A stretch of 64,000 bases of DNA. Origin: a virus (Duplodnaviria; Caudoviricetes). This document shows, piece by piece, positions 12,924 through 64,000 of this stretch. Both the position numbers and the translations under genes were made by a program. The stretch lies in IMG/VR virus record IMGVR_UViG_3300047539_000043, positions 6,301-70,300 of that record. One strand, 5' to 3'. Within the stretch, counting starts at the first letter, position 1. Every line of letters begins with the position of its first letter. The notes under the pieces were generated by a model. The model was given only the letters and a program-made list of their open reading frames with translations, had not been told where the DNA came from and did not search any database.

Positions 12924-15900
12924 CTATTGTGCAGGGGTTAACTTTCTATTAGCCCGCGATTTGGCCTCTTCTGGGTGGGTGATTTTCCAGTCCCGCTGGA
13001 TGAATTTGTCCTCGGCCACATTTCCGCCCGGGTTAATATAGCGCGGCGCTGGCCGTATGGCGAGCGCCCGACCCCCCAGGCCGATATTCGAATTCTGGTT
13101 TGCATTGTTGCCCAATAGCTGTTGGCCTACGATAGGGATGAAATTCTTGGCCGCATGGGTGGCCTTTTGCCCGAGGCGCGTGGGAAGCGAAGCCTGTGGG
13201 TTAGAGATCAGGCCGTATCGCGGTCCTTTGGAGGTTTGGGTCCACCCTTTATTGGTGGCGATTTCAAGCGCTGTCTTAGGGACCACCCCCAGTTTGTTCT
13301 GCGCTTCTCCTAGCGGGTCGTGCAGCCATCCATAGACGTCTTTTTGGAAGCCCGGCAGGATAGCACGCTCCGGTTGACCAGACGCAGTCTTACCGCCGGT
13401 ACGCCCGGCCAGGAGATCGTTGATATCTTTCGGCGGCTCCCCGGTCTTGAGGAACTGGTATGCACCGCTCATGGCTGCCACCGTCACGGCCAGCGCCAGC
13501 GTTGACCCGAGACGTGGATCGTAGTCCGGCGACTTCATGCTAAACCGCGTAGGGTGGAGGGCCCATTGAGCTACACCCCCGCCAACGTTGCGTCCAAAGC
13601 CCATCTGCCAGGAGTAGGATGTCAGCCCCAACTGCAGGCCCTCTTTCAATTTGTTGTTCCAGAAAATGTTGTCATGCGTCATCAATCCGAAGCGGTTGTC
13701 GATGTCATCTATGATGTTCATGGCGGCCTGAACTTGTTCCGCGTGGCCGGCCTGCGGGTTTTGGATCAACCACTCGCCCATATTTGATCGAAAGGCGCCG
13801 TTTTTCATCATCGGAATAACGTGACCAAATAGCGGCTTGGCTACCGTGTCCATGATCGCGCCAACAGTGCGGAGCGTAGACTTGCCAACGATCAATGGGG
13901 CCATGGCGGCAGCGGTAGCGTTTTCGCCGGGGGTTTTTGCATTGGCGAAGGACGCTTGGAGATCGTCCGCGGCGCCCTTCCACTCTTTTGTAACTGACTT
14001 CCAACCCTCTGGCAAGAACCGATAGGTTGGATCGCTATGCCCGATAGCGCGACCGTTGGCGTCTTCATACAGGTCCACGATCTTTGTTAGCTCTGGAACC
14101 AACCCGCGGTCGTTCCATTCTTTTGCTATGTCTATGCCGCCACGGTATATTTTGTAAGCGCCTCCAGGTGACGTCGCGAGAGTTTTAAGGGCTAGCGCGG
14201 GATCCCGCAGCCCTTGTTGTGCGGCGAGAGCCACGTCATTGACGAACCCCTCATTCAACATCGTGAATGGATGGAACGCCGACATGCCAAGAAGCACCCC
14301 GGTCCCCCAGTTCGTCGTTGGCTGCGCCAGGTCCATGAACTGCTTGCCCGCCGGGGTTGACCGCCAGCCCGGGCTGTAGGCGTTATTGAATACGGTAGCA
14401 TAGCCTTCTGGGGCGTACAGTTGGCGGTTGCCTAGCCCCCTGCCTAAGAGGGGGACGTTATCCGCCGTTTTCGTTGCGGTTACCATCTCTCTCTCTATAC
14501 CGGTTTCCAGGAGGTTGTTCATCATTAGATACTGATACATGCCATTACGCCGCTCACGAAATGCGGCAATAGGATTGTCATGTTTGAGCTCCATACCGTC
14601 GGCCAACCCGGTAGGTATATCAGGGTATTGTTTGGCTTTCAACCCGGCTCCGGACCCCTGCCGCGCCATATAGTTATCATAAAAAGCGTTCGCTTGGTCC
14701 GGGTTTTTCCACATCTGCGGGAAATACCATTTCTGGAACTGGTCCGGATCCAGCTTGCCATTTGCGCGAATGAAGGTTTCGTCTTTCTTGGCAGTCATCC
14801 GCATCGCACGAATTGCCGGCTCAAGCTCTGGGAAGCTGGCCAACCGCTCCATCGGGTTGGCCTCTTGCATAGCGATTTGAATTTCTCTTTGCTGATCTGC
14901 GGGCAATGCACCAATCAAATCCTCCATCGGCTTTCCCAGCGCGGCGTCAAAAGCGTCCTGAGTGCGCCGGATCGCGCCACGCCGCTCTCGAATATCAGCC
15001 TTGGCCACCTGCCCAGTTTTATCCATAGTCGTAGGAGAAAGAATTTTACCGAACCACGTATTGTTGAGATACGTTTCGGCGGCTCGACGTGCGCGGAACG
15101 GCGCACGCCCGTATTTAGCATTTTCAACATCCGCGGCTTGTTCGGCCCCGTGCGGGGGTGGATCCTGTCCGTTGGCCTTTTCCATGGCGGCTGCGGCGTC
15201 ATCGACCGCGCCGGCACCCAAGCTATGTGGGACGCCTTCTGGGCCTTCATCTTCCGGCTGGATGCGGTTCCACGGTTGATTGCGAATATCGTTAATGTCC
15301 CCGGGAATAGGCCCTTTTCCACTTTCCGGAGCGATTTCGGGCGCCGGTTCTGGCGCGATTTCAGAGAACGGAGTATTTTCCGCTTGCGGAACGGATGATT
15401 TTTCGATACTTTCCGCGGGCGCGACATCGCCCGGTTCCGGTTTAGCGGCCGCGCGCTCCTGCTCTGCTAGTTCGGGGGCGTCTATTCCCATCAATTTGGC
15501 CGCCAGGGTTTGTTCTTCTGTCGTCGGCTTCTCGGTCGGATGGGCGTTATCCTCTATGGGTTTCTCGAAAATGTCCGGAGCGACAGGACCCTTATTTTTT
15601 GCCGTAGTATTTTCCTGTCGATCCCAGAACGCTTCGGCCTCGTCAGCGAATGTATCGGGGTCCGCGCCTTGTTTTTCAGCTATAGACCGGTAGTACGCAT
15701 CCTCGGCCGGCTCGGCGAAATCCCAATGAGCGACCTTATAGGCCGCCTGCGGGTCCATACCGTTGGCTGTCAAAAACTGAAGCACCGGCTTCTCAATCTG
15801 TTCGTGGATTTGCAGCGGAGGCGCGGTGTCGAAGGTGCCGCTCGGGATGTAGGCCTTCACGGGCACGGACGAGTCAATGAGGGTCGTGACGTTGTCGGTA

Positions 15901-21754: not shown

Positions 21755-21813
21755 TTACGCAATCCCTGATCAGGTCCGTCAAGGGTACATGGGACTGGTT
21801 TGTAAACGGTTAA

Positions 21814-26484: not shown

Positions 26485-26500
26485 TTAGCTTATTCTTAAC
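26485..26500. promoter_or_regulatory. CtrA-type box (1 mismatch)
   Basis: TTAG-cttattc-TTAAC, upstream of the 26370 gene. Confidence 0.5.
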
Positions 26501-27465: not shown

Positions 27466-27951
27466 CTAATCATCCCTCAAACACAGCTTCATCTCCGCGT
27501 GTCGTCGTCTTGTAAGGCCCGCAAGTGTTTTTCCAGCAGCGTGGTTAAACTGGAGCATAGCTCGGCATCCCGCTCGGATGTTACCTGCGTTGATATAACG
27601 CGCAACTGAGCTATGGCAGAGCGCACGCTGGCCGACGTTATACTCGAAAGAGACAAGAGCAGCTTCCCTATTTGGCGGCAACGGAACCTTTATGCATTTG
27701 TGGACCATTTTGTCGTACTTGTCAAGGTCCTCCCCCAGTGCACTAAGGCATGCGTCCTTGGTGAACACCATAGTCATGGGGGGCTCGGGGCTGTCCGCAG
27801 ACGTACGTCCATAACACCAGGTCGTCGGGCGTCCGGTGCCTATGGTGTCCACATACGGCCGTGCCGCAAACCCCTCGTACCCAGCAACGAAGACCGCGGC
27901 GATGGCTATCCAGGCGGCGGCGGTACCGCCTCTCGCCGGCATCGTTGCCAT
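27466..27951 (-). CDS. endolysin, GH24 phage lysozyme with SAR-like N-terminus
   Basis: Ala/Gly-rich weak TM AAAWIAIAAVFVAG, then YEG...PYVD...TWCYGRT; AALVSFEYNVG; GLTRRRHAE..LC. Confidence 0.92.
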   Translation of the reverse strand: MATMPARGGTAAAWIAIAAVFVAGYEGFAARPYVDTIGTGRPTTWCYGRTSADSPEPPMTMVFTKDACLSALGEDLDKYDKMVHKCIKVPLPPNREAALVSFEYNVGQRALCHSSVARYINAGNIRAGCRAMLQFNHAAGKTLAGLTRRRHAEMKLCLRDD

Positions 27952-28299
27952 TTAAATTAAAGGTAGCCCGGGCTGGTTCGTCAGCCGGGCAAAGAGGATG
28001 GCGAGGCTGAACCCCACGCAGACGCAAGCGAAGGGAACCGGATGCAACCAGGTTTGAAAAGCAGGAAGACTGACCCATAGGCCGCCTATGATCGCCCACA
28101 GCACGGACAGCTGAACGCTCCACATGTGGTGCGCCAACCGCCAGTCAGGCGCGGCTATCTTATCGAGGACGTCGGCGACCTTGTCGGCCTTCGTCTCAGA
28201 CTTTTGCGGGTCCTGTGGCACCAGTAACTCCTGCTGGCCCGGTCGGTCCCGGGGGCTCCGCGGCAATGCCTTTTTCGAAGACTTTCCGGAGCTCGGCAA
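27952..28299 (-). CDS. putative holin
   Basis: WRLAHHMWSVQL followed by two TM segments and ARL..QPGL; directly upstream of the endolysin. Confidence 0.65.
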   Translation of the reverse strand: MPSSGKSSKKALPRSPRDRPGQQELLVPQDPQKSETKADKVADVLDKIAAPDWRLAHHMWSVQLSVLWAIIGGLWVSLPAFQTWLHPVPFACVCVGFSLAILFARLTNQPGLPLI

Positions 28300-28381
28300 C
28301 GAGACGGGCCCACTCGGACTCGAGGGTGGAAATTACAGACATAGGGAACTCCTTTTGATGCGCTAGGATGACCTATGGACG

Positions 28382-28392
28382 TTAATCTACCG

Positions 28393-28396
<4 letters not shown>
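28382..28396. promoter_or_regulatory. CtrA-type box (perfect)
   Basis: TTAA-tctaccg-TTAA (TTAA-N7-TTAAC on minus), upstream of the lysis cassette. Confidence 0.7.
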
Positions 28397-37806: not shown

Positions 37807-37821
37807 TTAAGAATTTATTAG
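37807..37821. promoter_or_regulatory. CtrA-type box (1 mismatch)
   Basis: TTAA-gaattta-TTAG; on minus followed by N13-GCTAG; upstream of the adaptor/fibre operon. Confidence 0.55.
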
Positions 37822-38728: not shown

Positions 38729-39739
38729 TTACGAAGCGGGCGTGACCTGAGCTTGGCAAAGCGCGCGACCGTCGATCACGGAATATCCGTAAACCTGCAA
38801 ACCGCGTAAAATTTGGCCAAACGTCAGCTCGGAACGCAACGTCTCGACCTTACTAATTTGCGAGGCAAACGTAAGTGAATGCGCATGGCCCGCAAATAGT
38901 GGGTACTCTCCTGCATTAAACTGCGCGCTGTCCGAACTGTTGTTCGGCAGCAAGTTGCTGATGTAGATAGTGAAACGGTCGATCATTCCGAGGCGGCCGT
39001 TCCGGAGCATCGACACGCTGTCGCCGCTCAGGTATGCCTGACGGAGTTCCGACTGCTTGATCTGACGGCCAGCCCACGCCGGCATGACGACCCATCGGCC
39101 GACTTCCGGGATGTTCTGCTCGTCAAGGACCTGGCCCATACGCATGAGCACGTCCAGGAGTTCCACCTGACCCGAACCCGCGTTACGGCCCACAACGGCC
39201 AGGGCAGAACCCTGGACGCCAAGGTTAAGCGAGCCAGTGATCACGCCAGCGGCGGTCCCCTGGTTCGCAGCAGCCATCTGGCCAACGATGCCGGACAGTA
39301 CATCCGTGTCCACGGCAATCTTCAGCTGTTGGGCCGCATCGTCCGACCACATGCTCAGGATGTTCAGATCGCTCTGGACTTCCATGACGTCATCGAGGAT
39401 CACGGAGAAGTACTTGCCGTTCCCGATGTAGAGCTCCACGGTGCCGCCTGTCGGGCGATCGAGCCCAAGCAAGCCGTCGGCATCGTAGTTGTGGATGGTG
39501 ATCGTCGGCTTCGTGCGGATCTTCACACGATCGCCTTTATTCTTGATCTCGCCTTCGTAGTCGGTGTTGCTAATGGCAGCGAGCACCGTTGAGGCGTAGA
39601 ACTTCTCTACCAGCTTGCCCGACCAGATCTCGGGAATGAACCCTGTGGCCTGCAACTGGTTGCCCGAAGAACCCGTCGGGTAAATCGCGGGAGTGGTGGC
39701 GGAAGTTGCGCCAGGAAATGCACCGGTAGGAATGCCCAT
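38729..39739 (-). CDS. major capsid protein
   Basis: FIPEIWSGKLVEKFY..TVL..ISNTDYEGEIKN.GDRVKIRT.P, LRNGRLGMIDRFTIY.SNLL, RGLQVYG..V; follows the scaffold and precedes a terminator. Confidence 0.93.
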   Translation of the reverse strand: MGIPTGAFPGATSATTPAIYPTGSSGNQLQATGFIPEIWSGKLVEKFYASTVLAAISNTDYEGEIKNKGDRVKIRTKPTITIHNYDADGLLGLDRPTGGTVELYIGNGKYFSVILDDVMEVQSDLNILSMWSDDAAQQLKIAVDTDVLSGIVGQMAAANQGTAAGVITGSLNLGVQGSALAVVGRNAGSGQVELLDVLMRMGQVLDEQNIPEVGRWVVMPAWAGRQIKQSELRQAYLSGDSVSMLRNGRLGMIDRFTIYISNLLPNNSSDSAQFNAGEYPLFAGHAHSLTFASQISKVETLRSELTFGQILRGLQVYGYSVIDGRALCQAQVTPAS

Positions 39740-39779
39740 TTGAGCCCCCATTTGCGGGGGCTATGGTTAAACCCCCTGG

Positions 39780-41884: not shown

Positions 41885-41899
41885 TTAACCGCCTCTTAA
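41885..41899. promoter_or_regulatory. CtrA-type box (perfect)
   Basis: TTAA-ccgcctc-TTAA (TTAA-N7-TTAAC on minus), in the intergenic gap upstream of the head operon. Confidence 0.72.
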
Positions 41900-51133: not shown

Positions 51134-51148
51134 TTACTAATTACTTAA
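51134..51148. promoter_or_regulatory. CtrA-type box (1 mismatch)
   Basis: TTAC-taattac-TTAA, upstream of the collagen/glyco operon. Confidence 0.5.
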
Positions 51149-54441: not shown

Positions 54442-54456
54442 TTAGCAAACCGTTAA
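54442..54456. promoter_or_regulatory. CtrA-type box (1 mismatch) in the divergent portal/terS promoter region
   Basis: TTAG-caaaccg-TTAA; on minus followed by N13-GCTAG. Confidence 0.55.
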
Positions 54457-55756: not shown

Positions 55757-57232
55757 ATGGGTGACATCAACTTCTCGGCCCCCGACGGAAGTGTCCTCGC
55801 CAAATTCATGGCGTCGGACTCATATGGACGCCTCATTGCTGGCCCGGTTGGAAGCGGCAAGACTACTGCGTGCATTATGGAACTCCTTAGGCGTGCTATT
55901 GAGCAAGAGCCCGCAGAAGACGGAGTGCGATATACTCGTTTTGCGGTTATTAGACAAACTTTCAAGCAGCTCAAAGACACCATCCTCAAAGAGTGTGAAA
56001 ACTGGCTCTCGAGCGACGGCGGTCCGGGCCTCTGGAAAGTCTCAGAAGGCACGTTCCACGTAAAATTCAACGATGTGGTGTCGGAATGGATCTTCATCCC
56101 CCTGGAAGACGCTCAGGATCAAGCACGACTATTGTCGATGCAGCTAACGGCGGCGTGGCTGTCCGAGTGTATCGAAATGAATTTGGACGTTGTGGGGCCG
56201 ATATCTGGCCGATTAGGGCGTTATCCGGCCGGCCGACGTGGAGCGCCAACGTGGCATGGGATGATCGCGGATACGAACATGCCGGCGGAACTAACACCGT
56301 GGCACAAGTTTATGGAAGACTTGCCGTCAAACTGGCAAAAATTCATTCAGCCGTCAGGGCTATCGCCGAACGCGGAGAACCTAAACTATCTTCTGCAGAC
56401 AAAGGAAACGATCAAGCTGCCGCTCGACCACCCCGTAAGACTCGCGCAAGGAAGAACGTATTATGAACAAGCGGTTATACAACATGGTGGCGAAGATCAC
56501 CCTTGGGTCAATCGCTATGTCAAAGCCCAGTACGGAGACGACCCATCCGGGATGGCGGTTTTCAAGGCGTCTTTTCGGCCGAGTTTTCACATTGTCCCTG
56601 ACACGCAACTCATTCCCGGCTATCCTCTCATCATCGGCCAGGATTTCGGTCGCAATCCATGGAGCCTCATCTGCCAGCCAGACCATATGGGGCGTCTCCT
56701 GGTCCATCAGGAAGTCCCAGCGACCAACATCGGTCTAGAGAAACATGTCACCCAGAACCTCAAGCCTCTCCTCCTATCCAACCGGTACATCCAGTTTAAA
56801 GTGGCTGTTGTGGGCGATCCGGCCGGTGTCGCGAAAGACTCGCATTCGGAGGAAACATCTTTCGAGCTCATTAAACGACTTGGCCTGCCGGCTTTCCCTG
56901 CGCCCACGAATGAAATCGACTCGCGGCTACGCGCTGTTGAAGCTCTGCTTGGACGTCAAACAAATGGTGGACCTACGCTACTTATCAACGGCCCAGGGTG
57001 CCCTATGCTATGCCGCGCTATGTCAGGCGGCTATCGCTTTGCAAAGGCGAAGCAGGGCGGCCTCAAGCCGAAGCCGGAAAAGCTCGACGAAGAAGGCTAC
57101 TCGCACGTAGCCGACACGCTGCAATACGTGGCGCTGATCGTCCACGGCAACATGGTCAACTACTACGTCCAGCGCCTCTACGAGAAGAAGCGGACGCCGG
57201 GGCAGCCCGTGTCGTCGCTAGGTTGGACCTAG
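55757..57232 (+). CDS. terL: terminase large subunit
   Basis: AGGAGG SD. Walker A GPVGSGKTT, RFAVIR.T..QL.DT, WLSE, DTN.P, IGQDFG, HVAD.LQY. Confidence 0.93.
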   Translation: MGDINFSAPDGSVLAKFMASDSYGRLIAGPVGSGKTTACIMELLRRAIEQEPAEDGVRYTRFAVIRQTFKQLKDTILKECENWLSSDGGPGLWKVSEGTFHVKFNDVVSEWIFIPLEDAQDQARLLSMQLTAAWLSECIEMNLDVVGPISGRLGRYPAGRRGAPTWHGMIADTNMPAELTPWHKFMEDLPSNWQKFIQPSGLSPNAENLNYLLQTKETIKLPLDHPVRLAQGRTYYEQAVIQHGGEDHPWVNRYVKAQYGDDPSGMAVFKASFRPSFHIVPDTQLIPGYPLIIGQDFGRNPWSLICQPDHMGRLLVHQEVPATNIGLEKHVTQNLKPLLLSNRYIQFKVAVVGDPAGVAKDSHSEETSFELIKRLGLPAFPAPTNEIDSRLRAVEALLGRQTNGGPTLLINGPGCPMLCRAMSGGYRFAKAKQGGLKPKPEKLDEEGYSHVADTLQYVALIVHGNMVNYYVQRLYEKKRTPGQPVSSLGWT

Positions 57233-58527: not shown

Positions 58528-58893
58528 TTAATGCTTCGTGTCTTCATCGTCCGGGCATTGTATCAGCAAAGCCATGGCATGGATGAGGTTTTTGCGGCAG
58601 GTCTCGGCATGACCCGTGATAATACCCATCGACTCGTCCAGCTTCGTGTCGGTCAAGGTGCCGGCGGCCAGAGAGGCCCGAACGCCCGATACACTTTCTA
58701 ATCTACCGCACATTTCCGAAAGTTGCAAGGCGGCTTTGGCGGTTTCGAAAAAGGTGTCACGCACGACCTTGCGATCGTACGAGTCCATGAGGACCAGGAG
58801 GGCAGATGTGCGGAGTGTGTTGCCCTCGGCAGCTGATGGGGTAGTCCCCAACATGGAGCAGACGAGGTCCTCGTTAAGAAGCGGCGATGTCAT
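58528..58893 (-). CDS. hypothetical protein
   Basis: Overlaps the end of the wHTH gene; start uncertain. Confidence 0.6.
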   Translation of the reverse strand: MTSPLLNEDLVCSMLGTTPSAAEGNTLRTSALLVLMDSYDRKVVRDTFFETAKAALQLSEMCGRLESVSGVRASLAAGTLTDTKLDESMGIITGHAETCRKNLIHAMALLIQCPDDEDTKH

Positions 58894-59464
58894 GGGGGGC
58901 ACTCTGGACGGCCGCGTGAACTTTGTCAAGTGCGACGTCGCGGTCGACCTTCTCCATGTAGTAGCCGTGGCCCCATAATGTCTTAATAACCTCGTGGCCT
59001 GGCGGCCAGAACGGGCGCAGCTTCTTGCGCAGATTACAAATTATCACATCGACCATCTTCGGGTCCACCGACTCAGGGTTGTCCGGCTGATTTCTACGTA
59101 TCGCACGTTGTGATTCAATCACATTGTGCAGCGTATCCTTGTCGGCCTCTTCTCGCTTGAGCAGGACCACAAGGAAATTCGCCTGGAGCCCGGTGACGTC
59201 GAACGCGCGCCGGCAGGCGATCAGCAGGTCCTTCTCCTGCTCCTTGGACAGCTGTGACGGCAGGTGGTCGGCGCGGCGGGCAGTGGGCGGCCAGTCGGCG
59301 CGAGGCATCTCGGTAACGACGCCACAGTTTATGGCATCCTGAATTACGTTACGAATGGACCCAGACTCGGCGTCCAAGCCGCGGGCAATAACTGCAACCG
59401 GAATACCCTCGTTAGCAAGGCGGGCGATTGACGCTAGAATATCGAATGCTTTATGGTCGCTCAT
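58874..59464 (-). CDS. winged-helix regulator with CtrA-like DNA-binding domain and no receiver domain
   Basis: DPKMVDVIICNLRKKL...IKTLWGHGY, versus the CtrA/OmpR pattern KIIDVFICKLRKKL...IETVWGRGY (recalled, not aligned by software). Confidence 0.8.
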   Translation of the reverse strand: MSDHKAFDILASIARLANEGIPVAVIARGLDAESGSIRNVIQDAINCGVVTEMPRADWPPTARRADHLPSQLSKEQEKDLLIACRRAFDVTGLQANFLVVLLKREEADKDTLHNVIESQRAIRRNQPDNPESVDPKMVDVIICNLRKKLRPFWPPGHEVIKTLWGHGYYMEKVDRDVALDKVHAAVQSAPHDIAAS

Positions 59465-59476
59465 AATTAATCTTTG

Positions 59477-59502
59477 TTATAAAAAGGTTAAGAAAAGGTA
59501 AA
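59477..59502. promoter_or_regulatory. tandem CtrA-type boxes upstream of the wHTH gene
   Basis: TTAT-aaaaagg-TTAA-gaaaagg-TAAA, i.e. TTTA-N7-TTAAC on minus. Confidence 0.55.
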
Positions 59503-61990: not shown

Positions 61991-62316
61991 GAGCCGTCCC
62001 CATCTGCACCTGACGCTGCTCGTCTTCGGCACAAGTCGTGGGGCAAGCCGGGGAAGCAGCAGAAACCCGGCGCCGGCGGGAAGAGGTTAGATCTAATTAC
62101 CTTAACACCGTGTTACCAGAAAGTCAAGAAGGTCTTAAGAGCCGATTTTCTAGGATCGCTGTGTCAGGGACAGTATTATTCTTTGGTGAGGTACCTGGCC
62201 TGTCCAGCATGGTGGTAGGGTCGAACCCTCTCAAGGTAAGATGGTTGTCCAATGGTTAATCGGAATCCCGGTCTAGGAGTTTAATCGGTTTTAACACATT
62301 GAATGTTACAGAGCAG

Positions 62317-62622
62317 TAACACCCCCTAATTGTTCGCACCCTGTACCGGTCTGTAACATTGGTCATCGTTCGCCAATCCTCGCGGCTCAAATAGATTGCT
62401 GTATAGCATATAACACCCCCTGCGACAAATTGTTCGCACCCTGTACCGGTCTGTAACATTGTCATTCGCCAATCATTCGCCAAAATCGCCATTCGCCAAT
62501 CCATTCGCCAATCCATTCGCCAAATCGCGCCCATTCGCCAAAGGCCGGGAGCAACAAGTCTGGCGAATTCTAAGCCTTTGACCGTGTTACCGTAATTACC
62601 GCGTTAACCATTGATTCGCCAA
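62317..62622. repeat. non-coding repeat array: two 34-bp direct repeats and nine (A/G)TTCGCCA units
   Basis: aattgttcgcaccctgtaccggtctgtaacattg at 62328 and 62428. cattcgccaa at 62463, 62474, 62490, 62502, 62514, 62532; variants at 62368 and 62614; one inverted copy at 62561. Confidence 0.9.
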
Positions 62623-62782
62623 GGGTGAAACAGGACACCCCCCCTATACGGCCCGGGACATATACATAGTATAATTTTGGCCTATACCGCGAGATATTCG
62701 GGAGGCGGCGGACCGGCTCTATGCCAAGGTATTCAAGGAACACTCAGACGATATAGAAGCCGAGATAGCCGCTACCATCGCC

Positions 62783-63109
62783 ATGAAGCGACTATTTAAC
62801 GCTCGTATGGCCTCTACGCAGGCAAAAGAAGCAAGGGCAGAAAGCGCCGCCGCCTTTCGCGCTCATGCTATGACCATAGCGGCACCCGCGGCGAAAGATA
62901 AGGTTGCCGACGCCGCGCGCCTAAAAGTAATCGAAGAACGGCGCCTCAAAGGCATTTCGCAAACCGACCTAGCCTTAGGGATAGGTGTCACGGTAGGAAT
63001 GGTTTCGCATTGGGAGACCGGTCACCGCGCGATCCCAATAGAGCGGATAGAGCAAATCGCCGCGCTATTCCAAAAGCCTGTGGCTTATTTTACCGGTACC
63101 ACGGTGTAA
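62783..63109 (+). CDS. XRE-family HTH transcriptional regulator
   Basis: RRLKGISQTDLA..IGVT.GMVSHWETG.R.IP.ERIEQIA..F. Confidence 0.85.
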   Translation: MKRLFNARMASTQAKEARAESAAAFRAHAMTIAAPAAKDKVADAARLKVIEERRLKGISQTDLALGIGVTVGMVSHWETGHRAIPIERIEQIAALFQKPVAYFTGTTV

Positions 63110-63257
63110 CCTAATCGGGGACAATAATGTCCCTGATTACAACCTTATTGTTTAGCGCCTTTTAACCCTCCCAACGTTTAATCCTGGACACATAAACCCG
63201 GCAAGAGTAGAGAAAAGCCACGGCCGGGCAATCCCTGCCCGCCAATAGGAGCACAAA

Positions 63258-63395
63258 ATGGCCCAAAAATTCATTCCCTCGGCCCACTGGTATGAGCCAC
63301 AACAAGGGTTTGAAGTGCGCCTGACCGCGTTAGACCTTGCCACTGATCAGGACCGCGTTATTCGTGATCTCATATGGTTTGTCCTTCGCGTTTGA
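63258..63395 (+). CDS. 45-aa hypothetical early protein (not in ORF track)
   Basis: AGGAG SD; MAQKFIPSAHWYEPQQGFEVRL... Confidence 0.6.
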   Translation: MAQKFIPSAHWYEPQQGFEVRLTALDLATDQDRVIRDLIWFVLRV

Positions 63396-63460
63396 ATTGG
63401 CGACGGTGCGCCCTACATGGGCGCACTATCGGCAATCATGCCACCGACTAGGAGACTAAA

Positions 63461-64000
63461 ATGGCACATGAACTCTCGGCCGTTTCCACTGGCAGTGGAG
63501 CGACTATCGTCTGCATCGGCGATGCATGGCATGGCCTCCAGAATCCTTTCACGGGCGATGAAAAGCAGGATCTGGCGCAAGCCGGTCTCGACTTCGAATG
63601 CATCAAGCTTCCCATCTATGCCTTGCGCCCGGGCGCGGAAGTCGGCAAAATCGCCATCGCGGCCGATGATCTGATCCGCGTTGAAGGCCGCTGGTCAAAC
63701 GCCCGGTCCGATACGCTCGCCTCCCTTGGGATCGCGGCGGACGGTTACAAGGTGCATCAGCCGAGCGACCTGCATGCGATGGTCAAAAAGTACTTTGCCA
63801 GCCTTGAATTGTCGTCGATGGGCAGTTTGAAGGGTGGCAAGGAGATCTGGGTCGCCGCGCGATACCCCGACGCCACGGTCGGAGGCATGAAACATCATCA
63901 ATATGCCCTCCTCACAACGTCGTTTGACACGACCCAAGCTAGCCGCTTGCAGCCGACCAGCACAAACGTTGTCTGCAACAATACCATGCGCGCCGCATGG
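63461..64000 (+). CDS. DUF932/DUF945-family protein (3' partial, not in ORF track)
   Basis: AGGAG SD. MAHEL...AWHGL...AGLDF...YKVHQP...GSLKGGKEIW..A...YALL.TSFD.T.A....PTS..VVCNNT. Confidence 0.85.
   Translation, partial: MAHELSAVSTGSGATIVCIGDAWHGLQNPFTGDEKQDLAQAGLDFECIKLPIYALRPGAEVGKIAIAADDLIRVEGRWSNARSDTLASLGIAADGYKVHQPSDLHAMVKKYFASLELSSMGSLKGGKEIWVAARYPDATVGGMKHHQYALLTTSFDTTQASRLQPTSTNVVCNNTMRAAW

Follow-up and report, generated by a model that had tools for sequence, protein, structure and literature searches.

CtrA is the central cell-cycle switch of alphaproteobacteria. Links between this regulator and phages have been published from two directions. CtrA boxes are known from alphaproteobacterial phages, where they are bound by the phosphorylated host protein, CtrA~P (PMC9437464, Mascolo et al. 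2022), and CtrA binds and regulates promoters of unrelated phages (PMC9437464; PMC10589892). Truncated phage CtrA proteins are also known: the roseophage RDJLphi1 encodes a CtrA homologue without a receiver, in an open reading frame (ORF) between the gafA and rcc01866 homologues (PMC6363796, Fogg 2019; PMC5026251, Hynes et al. 2016). Here we describe a receiver-less regulator with a CtrA-like DNA-reading head, together with CtrA-type boxes (TTAA-N7-TTAA) at a fixed promoter position before late operons, in the genome of an uncultured peat-soil phage. The genome is a 70.3-kb IMG/VR virus record (IMGVR_UViG_3300047539_000043), rated 100% complete. We analyzed its bases 6301-70300, a stretch of 64,000 nucleotides referred to below as the window, and positions are those of the window unless stated otherwise.

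Like CtrA (OmpR/PhoB family, NF045991), the regulator has a recognition helix with DV.IC.LRKKL and a wing with T.WG.GY, and boxes also occur on its own promoter. Its likely target, judged from sequence, is also TTAA-N7-TTAA(C) over the -35 position of activated promoters. Unlike CtrA, it has no receiver or phospho-accepting Asp, it carries an N-terminal helix-turn-helix (HTH) and a DWPP linker, and it is encoded by lytic phages rather than cells. With the roseophage homologues it shares a phage location, a retained CtrA-like DNA-binding domain and the loss of the receiver. However, the roseophages differ in the architecture of the protein, as seen in RDJL3, their genomes are those of siphoviruses or are related to gene transfer agents, and no cis-element has been described for them. 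The protein of Roseobacter phage RDJL3 (phage accession OK283305.1; protein of 279 amino acids (aa), annotated as a “CzcR-like response regulator,” L084:3662-4498) has no receiver, and its best model is CtrA NF045991 (54 bits). It comprises about 95 unassigned residues, a CtrA-like winged helix-turn-helix (wHTH) and a C-terminal HTH resembling sigma-70 region 4. It aligns with the regulator over the wHTH only (aa 86-168, 37% identity), which is too little to call the two orthologues. The BFVD database also holds a 151-aa “Transcriptional regulator CtrA” from RDJLphi2. We found no functional studies of the CtrA-like proteins of RDJLphi1, RDJLphi2 and RDJL3 in the searchable literature.

The closest described cis-elements are those of “lytic deferment” (PMC9437464), where TTAA-N7-TTAA likewise occurs in promoter regions of phages that probably infect alphaproteobacteria. 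In those cases many sites lie in one early or direct terminal repeat (DTR) region and are read by host CtrA, whereas here single boxes precede most late operons, stand at an activator position and are accompanied by a reading head of the phage's own. By analogy, the regulator may also resemble PhoB at pho boxes, a tandem winged-helix activator on direct repeats 11 bp apart that replace a missing -35, although PhoB has a different half-site sequence, depends on phosphorylation and is not phage-encoded. The following appear to be new: regulator and boxes occur together, the protein joins an HTH to a wHTH, its family is large, and the promoters follow a defined geometry with predicted leaderless starts. 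The original prediction, made from this DNA alone, stood as regards the CtrA-like head and the late-promoter boxes, and claimed more novelty than the published precedents leave (PMC6363796; PMC5026251; PMC9437464). Its further suggestions, an uncoupling of lysis from the host cell cycle and effects on host CtrA targets, are conjectural.

The regulator consists of an N-terminal HTH, a linker with a conserved P-x-x-DWPP motif, an OmpR-type winged helix and a C-terminal helix. An AlphaFold (AF2) model built with 44 homologues in the input, with a mean predicted local distance difference test (pLDDT) of 85, places a three-helix bundle at aa 9-47, a linker with an invariant D-W-P, the winged helix at aa 77-170 and the C-terminal helix at aa 172-187. 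The model lacks the N-terminal four-stranded sheet typical of the OmpR/PhoB DNA-binding domain. As predicted, the ORF joins a CtrA-type helix (KMVDVIICNLRKKL, aa 136-149) and wing (IKTLWGHGY, aa 160-168) with no receiver: Pfam gave no PF00072 match in the regulator, and aa 1-76 fold as HTH and linker. Pfam Trans_reg_C (PF00486) matched only at aa 128-169, covering the C-terminal half of the model (30.8 bits against a cut-off of 26.2), and PF00486 is precomputed in most homologues. When superposed on solved DNA-binding domains, the winged helix matched those of ArlR (Z 8.9), BaeR (8.6), VanR (8.4), DrrB (8.4) and PmrA (8.2), with root-mean-square deviations of 2.4-3.2 over 72-89 residues. The N-terminal domain had been thought novel. 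Folded alone, it matched only small HTH DNA-binding domains with modest scores (best 2lvs, Z 5.9; further matches to DosR/NarL/RcsB types, SorC/DeoR N-termini, a resolvase and sigma region 4), and a PDB profile search also returned 2lvs_A (E 1.6e-4). By its model, it is a generic HTH with no new fold.

The likeness of the reading head to CtrA in particular was borne out by three comparisons. Among 18,950 NCBIfam models, the best match to the regulator was the CtrA equivalog NF045991 (25.4 bits, E 1e-5, model positions 187-221 only), ahead of RpaB, VirG, PhoP, TorR, PhoB and CpxR. CtrA was the best NCBIfam model in all 44 family members scanned, with a best E of 1.5e-8 against 2e-5 to 6e-5 for the next families. 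By BLASTP, 20 of 43 residues (47%) at aa 128-170 are identical to CtrA P0272 (E 2e-8), and profile-profile alignment (hhalign) of the phage wHTH family with 12 CtrAs gave a probability of 98% and an E of 3e-13 over 60 columns. The CtrA sequences were fetched with a short bait, which is 95-97% identical to database CtrAs. Invariant in the 12 CtrAs are K-I-I-D-V-F-I-C-K-L-R-K-K-L and T-V-W-G-R-G-Y. In the phage family, the corresponding motifs are K-M-V-D-V-x-I-C-x-L-R-K-K-L (recognition helix at aa 137-152 of the regulator) and T-x-W-G-x-G-Y; at least 90% of its members have the Cys, and the Trp does not vary. Other solved OmpR-family domains have R, S, A or K at the Cys position and mostly R at the Trp position; DrrB also has Trp. 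A ranking of response regulators by the phage wHTH profile was set aside, as all 150 matches listed were proteins of the phage family, and the NCBIfam models were used instead. Short receiver-less “CtrA” proteins in the databases proved to be truncated gene calls starting at an internal MTKPFH and are not relevant. With no receiver, and 25 bits against the NF045991 whole-protein cut-off of 350, the regulator is not a member of CtrA itself. By sequence, it nevertheless has a CtrA-type reading head, and its winged helix either descended from the CtrA DNA-binding domain or converged tightly on it.

The regulator belongs to a large family. A word-indexed search returned more than 154 full-length homologues and an exhaustive search at least 385 clusters at 50% identity (E <=1e-10). 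The family was found at 95 IMG/VR loci, many on contigs of 60-69 kb. When loci were centered on terL, the regulator lay about 1.5-2 kb beyond it in 58 of 80, and most of the others had too little flanking sequence. The terL clade comprises 489 relatives in IMG/VR.

Four perfect TTAA-N7-TTAA boxes occur in the window (28382, 41885, 55707 and 55718) where 0.37 are expected, and none of 100 shuffles reached four. Three of these had been predicted, as had a number of one-mismatch boxes, all of which are present, and the lysis, head and terL labels given to the genes behind the perfect boxes proved right by PHROG matches. The accompanying chance estimate for one-mismatch boxes was too low, at about 5 where we computed 12.2 for up to one mismatch. 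Boxes with up to one mismatch number 19, a count reached by 3 of 100 shuffles, and given the chance expectation of 12.2 it is weak when taken alone. The boxes are dispersed from 12.9 to 62.1 kb, one per operon head. Along the downstream gene, the pattern is TTAA-N7-TTAAC, 10 nt and TAnnnT, so that the hexamer starts 11 nt after the second TTAA. A -10 after the box, read as CTAG, had been suggested earlier; the hexamer exists, but it is this TAnnnT, and “CTAG” is a C followed by the hexamer's TAG.

Comparison with relatives indicates that the boxes are real promoter elements of the whole clade. In 80 related loci, with a total of 1.13 Mb of DNA surrounding the regulator, pairs of TTAA show a single spike at a spacing of 11, with 69 pairs against about 7 at other spacings; in the intergenic DNA alone, the numbers are 57 and about 4. 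These pooled counts rest on crude longest-ORF calls and on related genomes, so that the sites are not independent and the numbers overstate their independence, which weakens the case made below. Six complete genomes with the regulator (G000-G005) each have 9-16 boxes with up to one mismatch at gene boundaries, against means of 3.3-5.8 and maxima of 6-10 for eleven control patterns (TTAA at N4-N10; AATT, TATA, ATAT, TAAT and ATTA at N7). Perfect boxes are few in whole genomes of the relatives (3, 1, 0, 0 and 1), and the signal lies in the boundary boxes with up to one mismatch. Among the genomes compared, enrichment of boxes was found only in those with the regulator family. The syntenic Rhizobium phage RHph_TM3_14A has 2 boundary boxes against 2.5 in controls, thus no enrichment, and encodes only a distant 119-aa wHTH (L087:1288-1647) with another recognition helix (MKVVIFRTREKM) and no N-terminal HTH.

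Individual boxes are also conserved in position. A box with up to one mismatch precedes the orthologue of g37346 in G001, G003 and G004, and the boxes before g12543 and terL recur in G001. At the position of the g25789 box, G001 has a perfect box. The divergent portal/g54505 box recurs in G002, G003 and G004, and boxes also precede the regulator in G001, G002 and G004. The intergenic DNA around each of these boxes has diverged. At the position of the head-operon box (41885), G001 has a box with one mismatch. In a sub-lineage of the terL clade (L128, L134, L147, L151, L173 and L184), the order is terL, g57980 homologue and portal, with the terL block inverted relative to the window and no regulator within reach.

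For a logo, we aligned the 73 sites for which a start codon with a Shine-Dalgarno sequence (SD) ahead of it follows at 40-49 nt. A C comes after the second half-site in 46 of the 73. When the first T of the box is numbered 0, T-A occupies positions 26-27 and T position 31, which places the start of the -10 hexamer 11 nt after the box. A G is frequent two bases before the hexamer, and the 73 sites show no -35 hexamer. Sharp classes emerge when the box end is measured to the first ATG of the ORF behind it. A class at 23-24 nt has 38 sites, where controls have about 2 per position, and a broad class at 41-50 nt holds about 117 against about 22; the class at 12-13 nt stems from triple arrays, of which it represents the third half-site. 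A distance of 23-24 nt is the sum of an 11-nt spacer, the 6-nt -10 and 6-7 nt to the start, as expected of a transcript that starts at its own ATG, and this spacing puts the box at about -38 to -24. The start codons of this type (12914, 55757 and 59464 in the window; 38 sites in relatives) have no SD. Leaderless mRNAs are thus predicted from sequence for terL, the regulator and a gene of the virion module. The promoters fit the CtrA-activated class, which carries its box at -35 (PMC11264516), in that the deduced geometry has a TTAA-N7-TTAA(C) box over the -35 position and no -35 hexamer. In relatives, repeats of the AAGGTGA type adjoin the strongest boxes. Covariation between the bases flanking the box and the residue after the Cys of the recognition helix (N, K or H in the family) is suggestive in a loose set of sites, with too few sites under strict criteria.

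A position weight matrix (PWM) was built from the relatives' sites only and then run on this genome. It found 12 matches of at least 14 bits, against 1.4 (maximum 4) in composition-preserving local shuffles, and 4 of at least 18 bits, against 0.07. The top matches (51134, 37807, 41885, 28382, 54442, 59477/59488, 21799 and 55718) are all oriented toward the downstream gene (Table 1). The 18-kb replication module (to window 12.9 kb) has no match except one near the left end, at genome position 426.

The regulator's own gene may be under feedback. Many relatives have an ordinary TTGAC-N17-TAnnnT promoter at the regulator gene, so that host polymerase can make the regulator early; in this phage, three half-sites cover the regulator promoter. 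At the head of the right-end operon, a one-mismatch box lies over the spacer and -10 of a sigma-70-type promoter (62095-62138) and is a possible shut-off site. A scan for sigma-70 promoters and terminators over 54-64 kb gave nothing above shuffles. CtrA boxes at the -10 are repressive at ctrA P1 and hemE Ps (PMC11264516), and for this reason a switch that is off early and on late is plausible. Relatives have 37 occurrences of an element, TTAACCTTTTGTTAAGGT, that is related to the 62095-62138 promoter; 29 of these are on the strand of the regulator and upstream of it. TTAACCTTTTGTTAAGGT belongs to a conserved element of about 60 bp, which many distant relatives have on the regulator's strand at 0.4-4.9 kb upstream of the gene (L037:8640-8700, L047:7200-7260, L057:8195-8260), and which reads AATAT.TAGG, an A-rich stretch, TTAACCTTTTGTTAAGGT and (A/G).CAAGGTGA.ATTCCCC. 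It may represent an early promoter of the extended -10 type together with an operator, or else a landmark of the genome.

We estimate a probability of roughly 0.6 that the regulator is a phosphorylation-independent CtrA-type late activator with its own class of promoter. In this scheme, host RNA polymerase would make the regulator from the right-end operon, where sigma-70-type promoters occur, as they do in relatives. The regulator would bind tandem TTAA half-sites 11 bp apart (TTAA-N7-TTAAC). At some 8-10 late promoters, the box would stand in for the -35 (about -38 to -24), with the -10 (TAnnnT) starting 11 nt after it, and the regulator would recruit RNA polymerase there, as CtrA and PhoB do. 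This would switch on the portal, head, tail, virion-protein, lysis and terL genes, with several transcripts starting at the ATG. Feedback would come from the boxes that cover the regulator promoter and the -10 at the operon head. We infer that it is the regulator that binds the boxes, that its binding activates, and that the timing is as described. Because an HTH and P-x-x-DWPP linker take the place of the receiver, such a protein would not need the CckA-ChpT phosphorelay, and because the boxes stand at a fixed position before late genes, the phage probably runs its late program without a host signal. Several observations weigh against this scheme. RDJL3 has a receiver-less CtrA-like protein yet shows no enrichment of boxes (0 against 2.1), and one relative (G006; 57 kb, 87% complete) has 5 boundary boxes and no detectable regulator. 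The base-contacting residue after the Cys is N in this regulator and K in CtrA, and is N, K or H across the family. Lastly, host CtrA~P recognizes the same consensus (PMC9437464), so that the boxes alone need no phage factor.

This last point leads to the possibility that host CtrA~P serves the boxes, that late expression is gated by the state of the host cell, as in “lytic deferment,” and that the phage protein is only a modulator, acting as competitor, repressor or shut-off of the host regulon. The box consensus including TTAAC is indeed the host CtrA motif, and CtrA regulates promoters of unrelated phages (PMC9437464; PMC10589892). The boxes over the -10 of the operon-head and regulator promoters are in a repressor-like position, and the boxes of G006 without a detected regulator would also be accounted for. 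Yet the published cases are dense clusters in one region, whereas here there is one box per late operon in activator geometry. Promoters without -35 hexamers need an activator late in infection, when the supply of host CtrA is uncertain, and the syntenic phage of a CtrA-bearing host, which lacks such a reading head, has no boxes. On balance, we regard control by the host protein as unlikely, although it is the main alternative.

The regulator might instead bind some other sequence, through its N-terminal HTH or its altered helix, with the boxes read by another factor and the CtrA likeness holding at family level only. The short span of the CtrA match (about 40-60 residues), the second HTH and the AAGGTGA-type repeats beside the strongest boxes in relatives would agree with this. 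However, all 44 members, and the RDJL3 protein too, match the CtrA model best, the hallmark Cys and Trp are common to CtrA and the phage family, and it would be a coincidence that CtrA-type boxes are enriched in exactly these genomes, all of which makes a different target rather improbable. It is hardly credible that AT-rich intergenic DNA and stop codons gave rise to the boxes by chance: the modest excess of boxes with up to one mismatch and the overlap of several with TAA stop codons are set against enrichment specific to N7 over N4-N10 and over five tetramers of the same composition, the intergenic spacing peak, fixed distances to the -10 and start codons, and positional conservation.

More tentatively, and at somewhat less than even odds, a very large family of lytic-phage regulators may have arisen from the CtrA DNA-binding domain and, with its dedicated promoter class, in which a CtrA-type box replaces the -35 and leaderless late mRNAs often result, may run a CtrA-style program independent of the host phosphorelay. 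A master regulator's DNA-binding domain would then have been captured and turned into a phage timing device. The sites are also those of host CtrA, so that during infection the phage protein might in addition redirect the host regulon for cell cycle, pili and flagella. The regulator family is widespread in peat and soil viromes, and the scheme offers a testable regulon of about 10 promoters with defined geometry, including the predicted leaderless transcripts. A natural CtrA-type protein that is predicted to be phosphorylation-independent would be useful for studying recognition of, and activation from, CtrA sites.

Table 1. Features of the regulator, its candidate promoters and the surrounding genome (window positions; PWM trained on relatives)
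Feature	Position	Strand	Basis	Downstream start and remarks
Regulator gene, 196 aa	58874..59464	-	ORF; Pfam; AF2 model; homologues	
N-terminal three-helix HTH (aa 9-47)	59324..59440	-	AF2 of the domain alone, pLDDT 87.5	
OmpR/PhoB-type winged helix (aa 77-170)	58955..59236	-	Fold, profile and BLASTP matches	
Regulator's own candidate promoter, TTTA-N7-TTAA-N7-ATAA, 11-bp phase	59477..59502	-	PWM 15.3-15.7 bits	Regulator ATG 23 nt after its upstream box (59488), leaderless-type
Box, divergent portal/g54505 region: TTAACGGTTTGCTAA, 11 nt, TATGCT	54442..54456	-	PWM 17.2 bits	GVG-type start (GTG) with SD 45 nt downstream
Box before g50400..51089 (glycosylation/GPT-protein block): TTAAGTAATTAGTAA, 11 nt, TAACGT	51134..51148	-	PWM 23.4 bits	ATG 44 nt downstream; top PWM score of the genome
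Perfect box before head operon: TTAAGAGGCGGTTAAC, 10 nt, TAGGAT	41885..41899	-	PWM 19.5 bits	ATG 43 nt downstream; operon of small head protein, scaffold, major capsid protein
Box before g37346..37762: CTAATAAATTCTTAAC, 10 nt, TAGGCT	37807..37821	-	PWM 20.9 bits	ATG 44 nt downstream
Perfect box between tail-fiber stop codon and lysis cassette: TTAACGGTAGATTAAC	28382..28396	-	PWM 18.9 bits	ATG with SD 39 nt downstream (28342)
Box before g25789..26370: TTAAGAATAAGCTAAC, 10 nt, TATAGT	26485..26499	-	PWM 13.4 bits	
Candidate degenerate box: TTAACCGTTTACAAA, 11 nt, TACCCT	21799..21813	-	PWM 15.0 bits	44 nt before gene of 589-aa virion protein
Box before g12543..12914: CTAATAGAAAGTTAAC, 10 nt, TAGGGT	12938..12952	-	PWM 13.0 bits	ATG 23 nt after box, leaderless-type
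Three TTAA in 11-bp phase, overlapping exonuclease stop codon	55707..55732	+	Perfect-box count	terL ATG 24 nt after second box (55718), leaderless-type
Sigma-70-type promoter, TTGACT, 17 nt, TAAGGT with TG extension, head of right-end operon	62095..62138	-	Sequence	
terL	55757-57232		PHROG match	
Major head protein	38729-39751		PHROG match	
Holin and endolysin	27466-28299		PHROG matches	
Replication module	to about 12 kb	+	PHROG, synteny	
Late module	about 54.4 kb (portal) down to 12.5 kb	-	PHROG, synteny	
Short block: gene of PHROG 36773, exonuclease gene, terL		+	PHROG, synteny	
Right-end operon including the regulator gene	62.0 to 57.2 kb	-	PHROG, synteny	

The overall layout of the genome is podovirus-like by PHROG matches and synteny. 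From the portal, the late module runs through a glycosylation island, scaffold, major capsid protein, tail genes, a 1704-aa fiber, holin and endolysin to internal virion proteins. No tRNA genes were found in the phage genome. The nearest cultured relatives are the Rhizobium phages RHph_TM3_14A and TM27A, with TerL 48% identical and the synteny of portal, terL and right end common to both. Near-identical DNA is present in peat, permafrost and freshwater metagenomes of many studies. A scan of bacterial genomes found no prophage copies; the sole match, a stray 5.4-kb contig in a Hydrogenedentes metagenome-assembled genome, was rejected, as it is no prophage and gives no clue to the host. A plasmid BLAST of the insertion sequence (IS)-like cassette, run as part of the host search, gave no match. 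Assembled contigs from peat RNA libraries of three studies cover the regulator gene; DNA carry-over is possible, and neither transcript starts nor strand can be read from them.

The ends of the record repeat each other, with 1565 of 1569 aligned bases identical and a 424-nt indel in the left copy, and the true genome is therefore about 68.7 kb. The repeat comprises window 62411-64000 and genome bases 1-1994, which lie upstream of the window, and the 424-nt stretch is an insertion in the left copy. The arrangement represents a direct terminal repeat in which a variant occurs or, alternatively, two populations merged in assembly; in IMG/VR, the record is labeled “linear.” The inserted segment of the left end holds the PWM match at genome position 426 (15.4 bits).

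Two small ORFs adjoin the features described above. One on the minus strand (58528..58929, start probably near 58896) shares 58874-58929 with the 3′ end of the regulator gene and is kept directly after the regulator in G001 and G004. Given this overlap and the kept order, the two are probably co-transcribed. The ATG at 28342, behind the perfect box at the lysis cassette, opens a 48-aa ORF (28196-28342), the start of which (MSVI.TLESEW.RLVA) is kept in G003. It overlaps out of frame the ORF with the holin match (27952-28299), and these may be two overlapping genes or the result of a frameshift.

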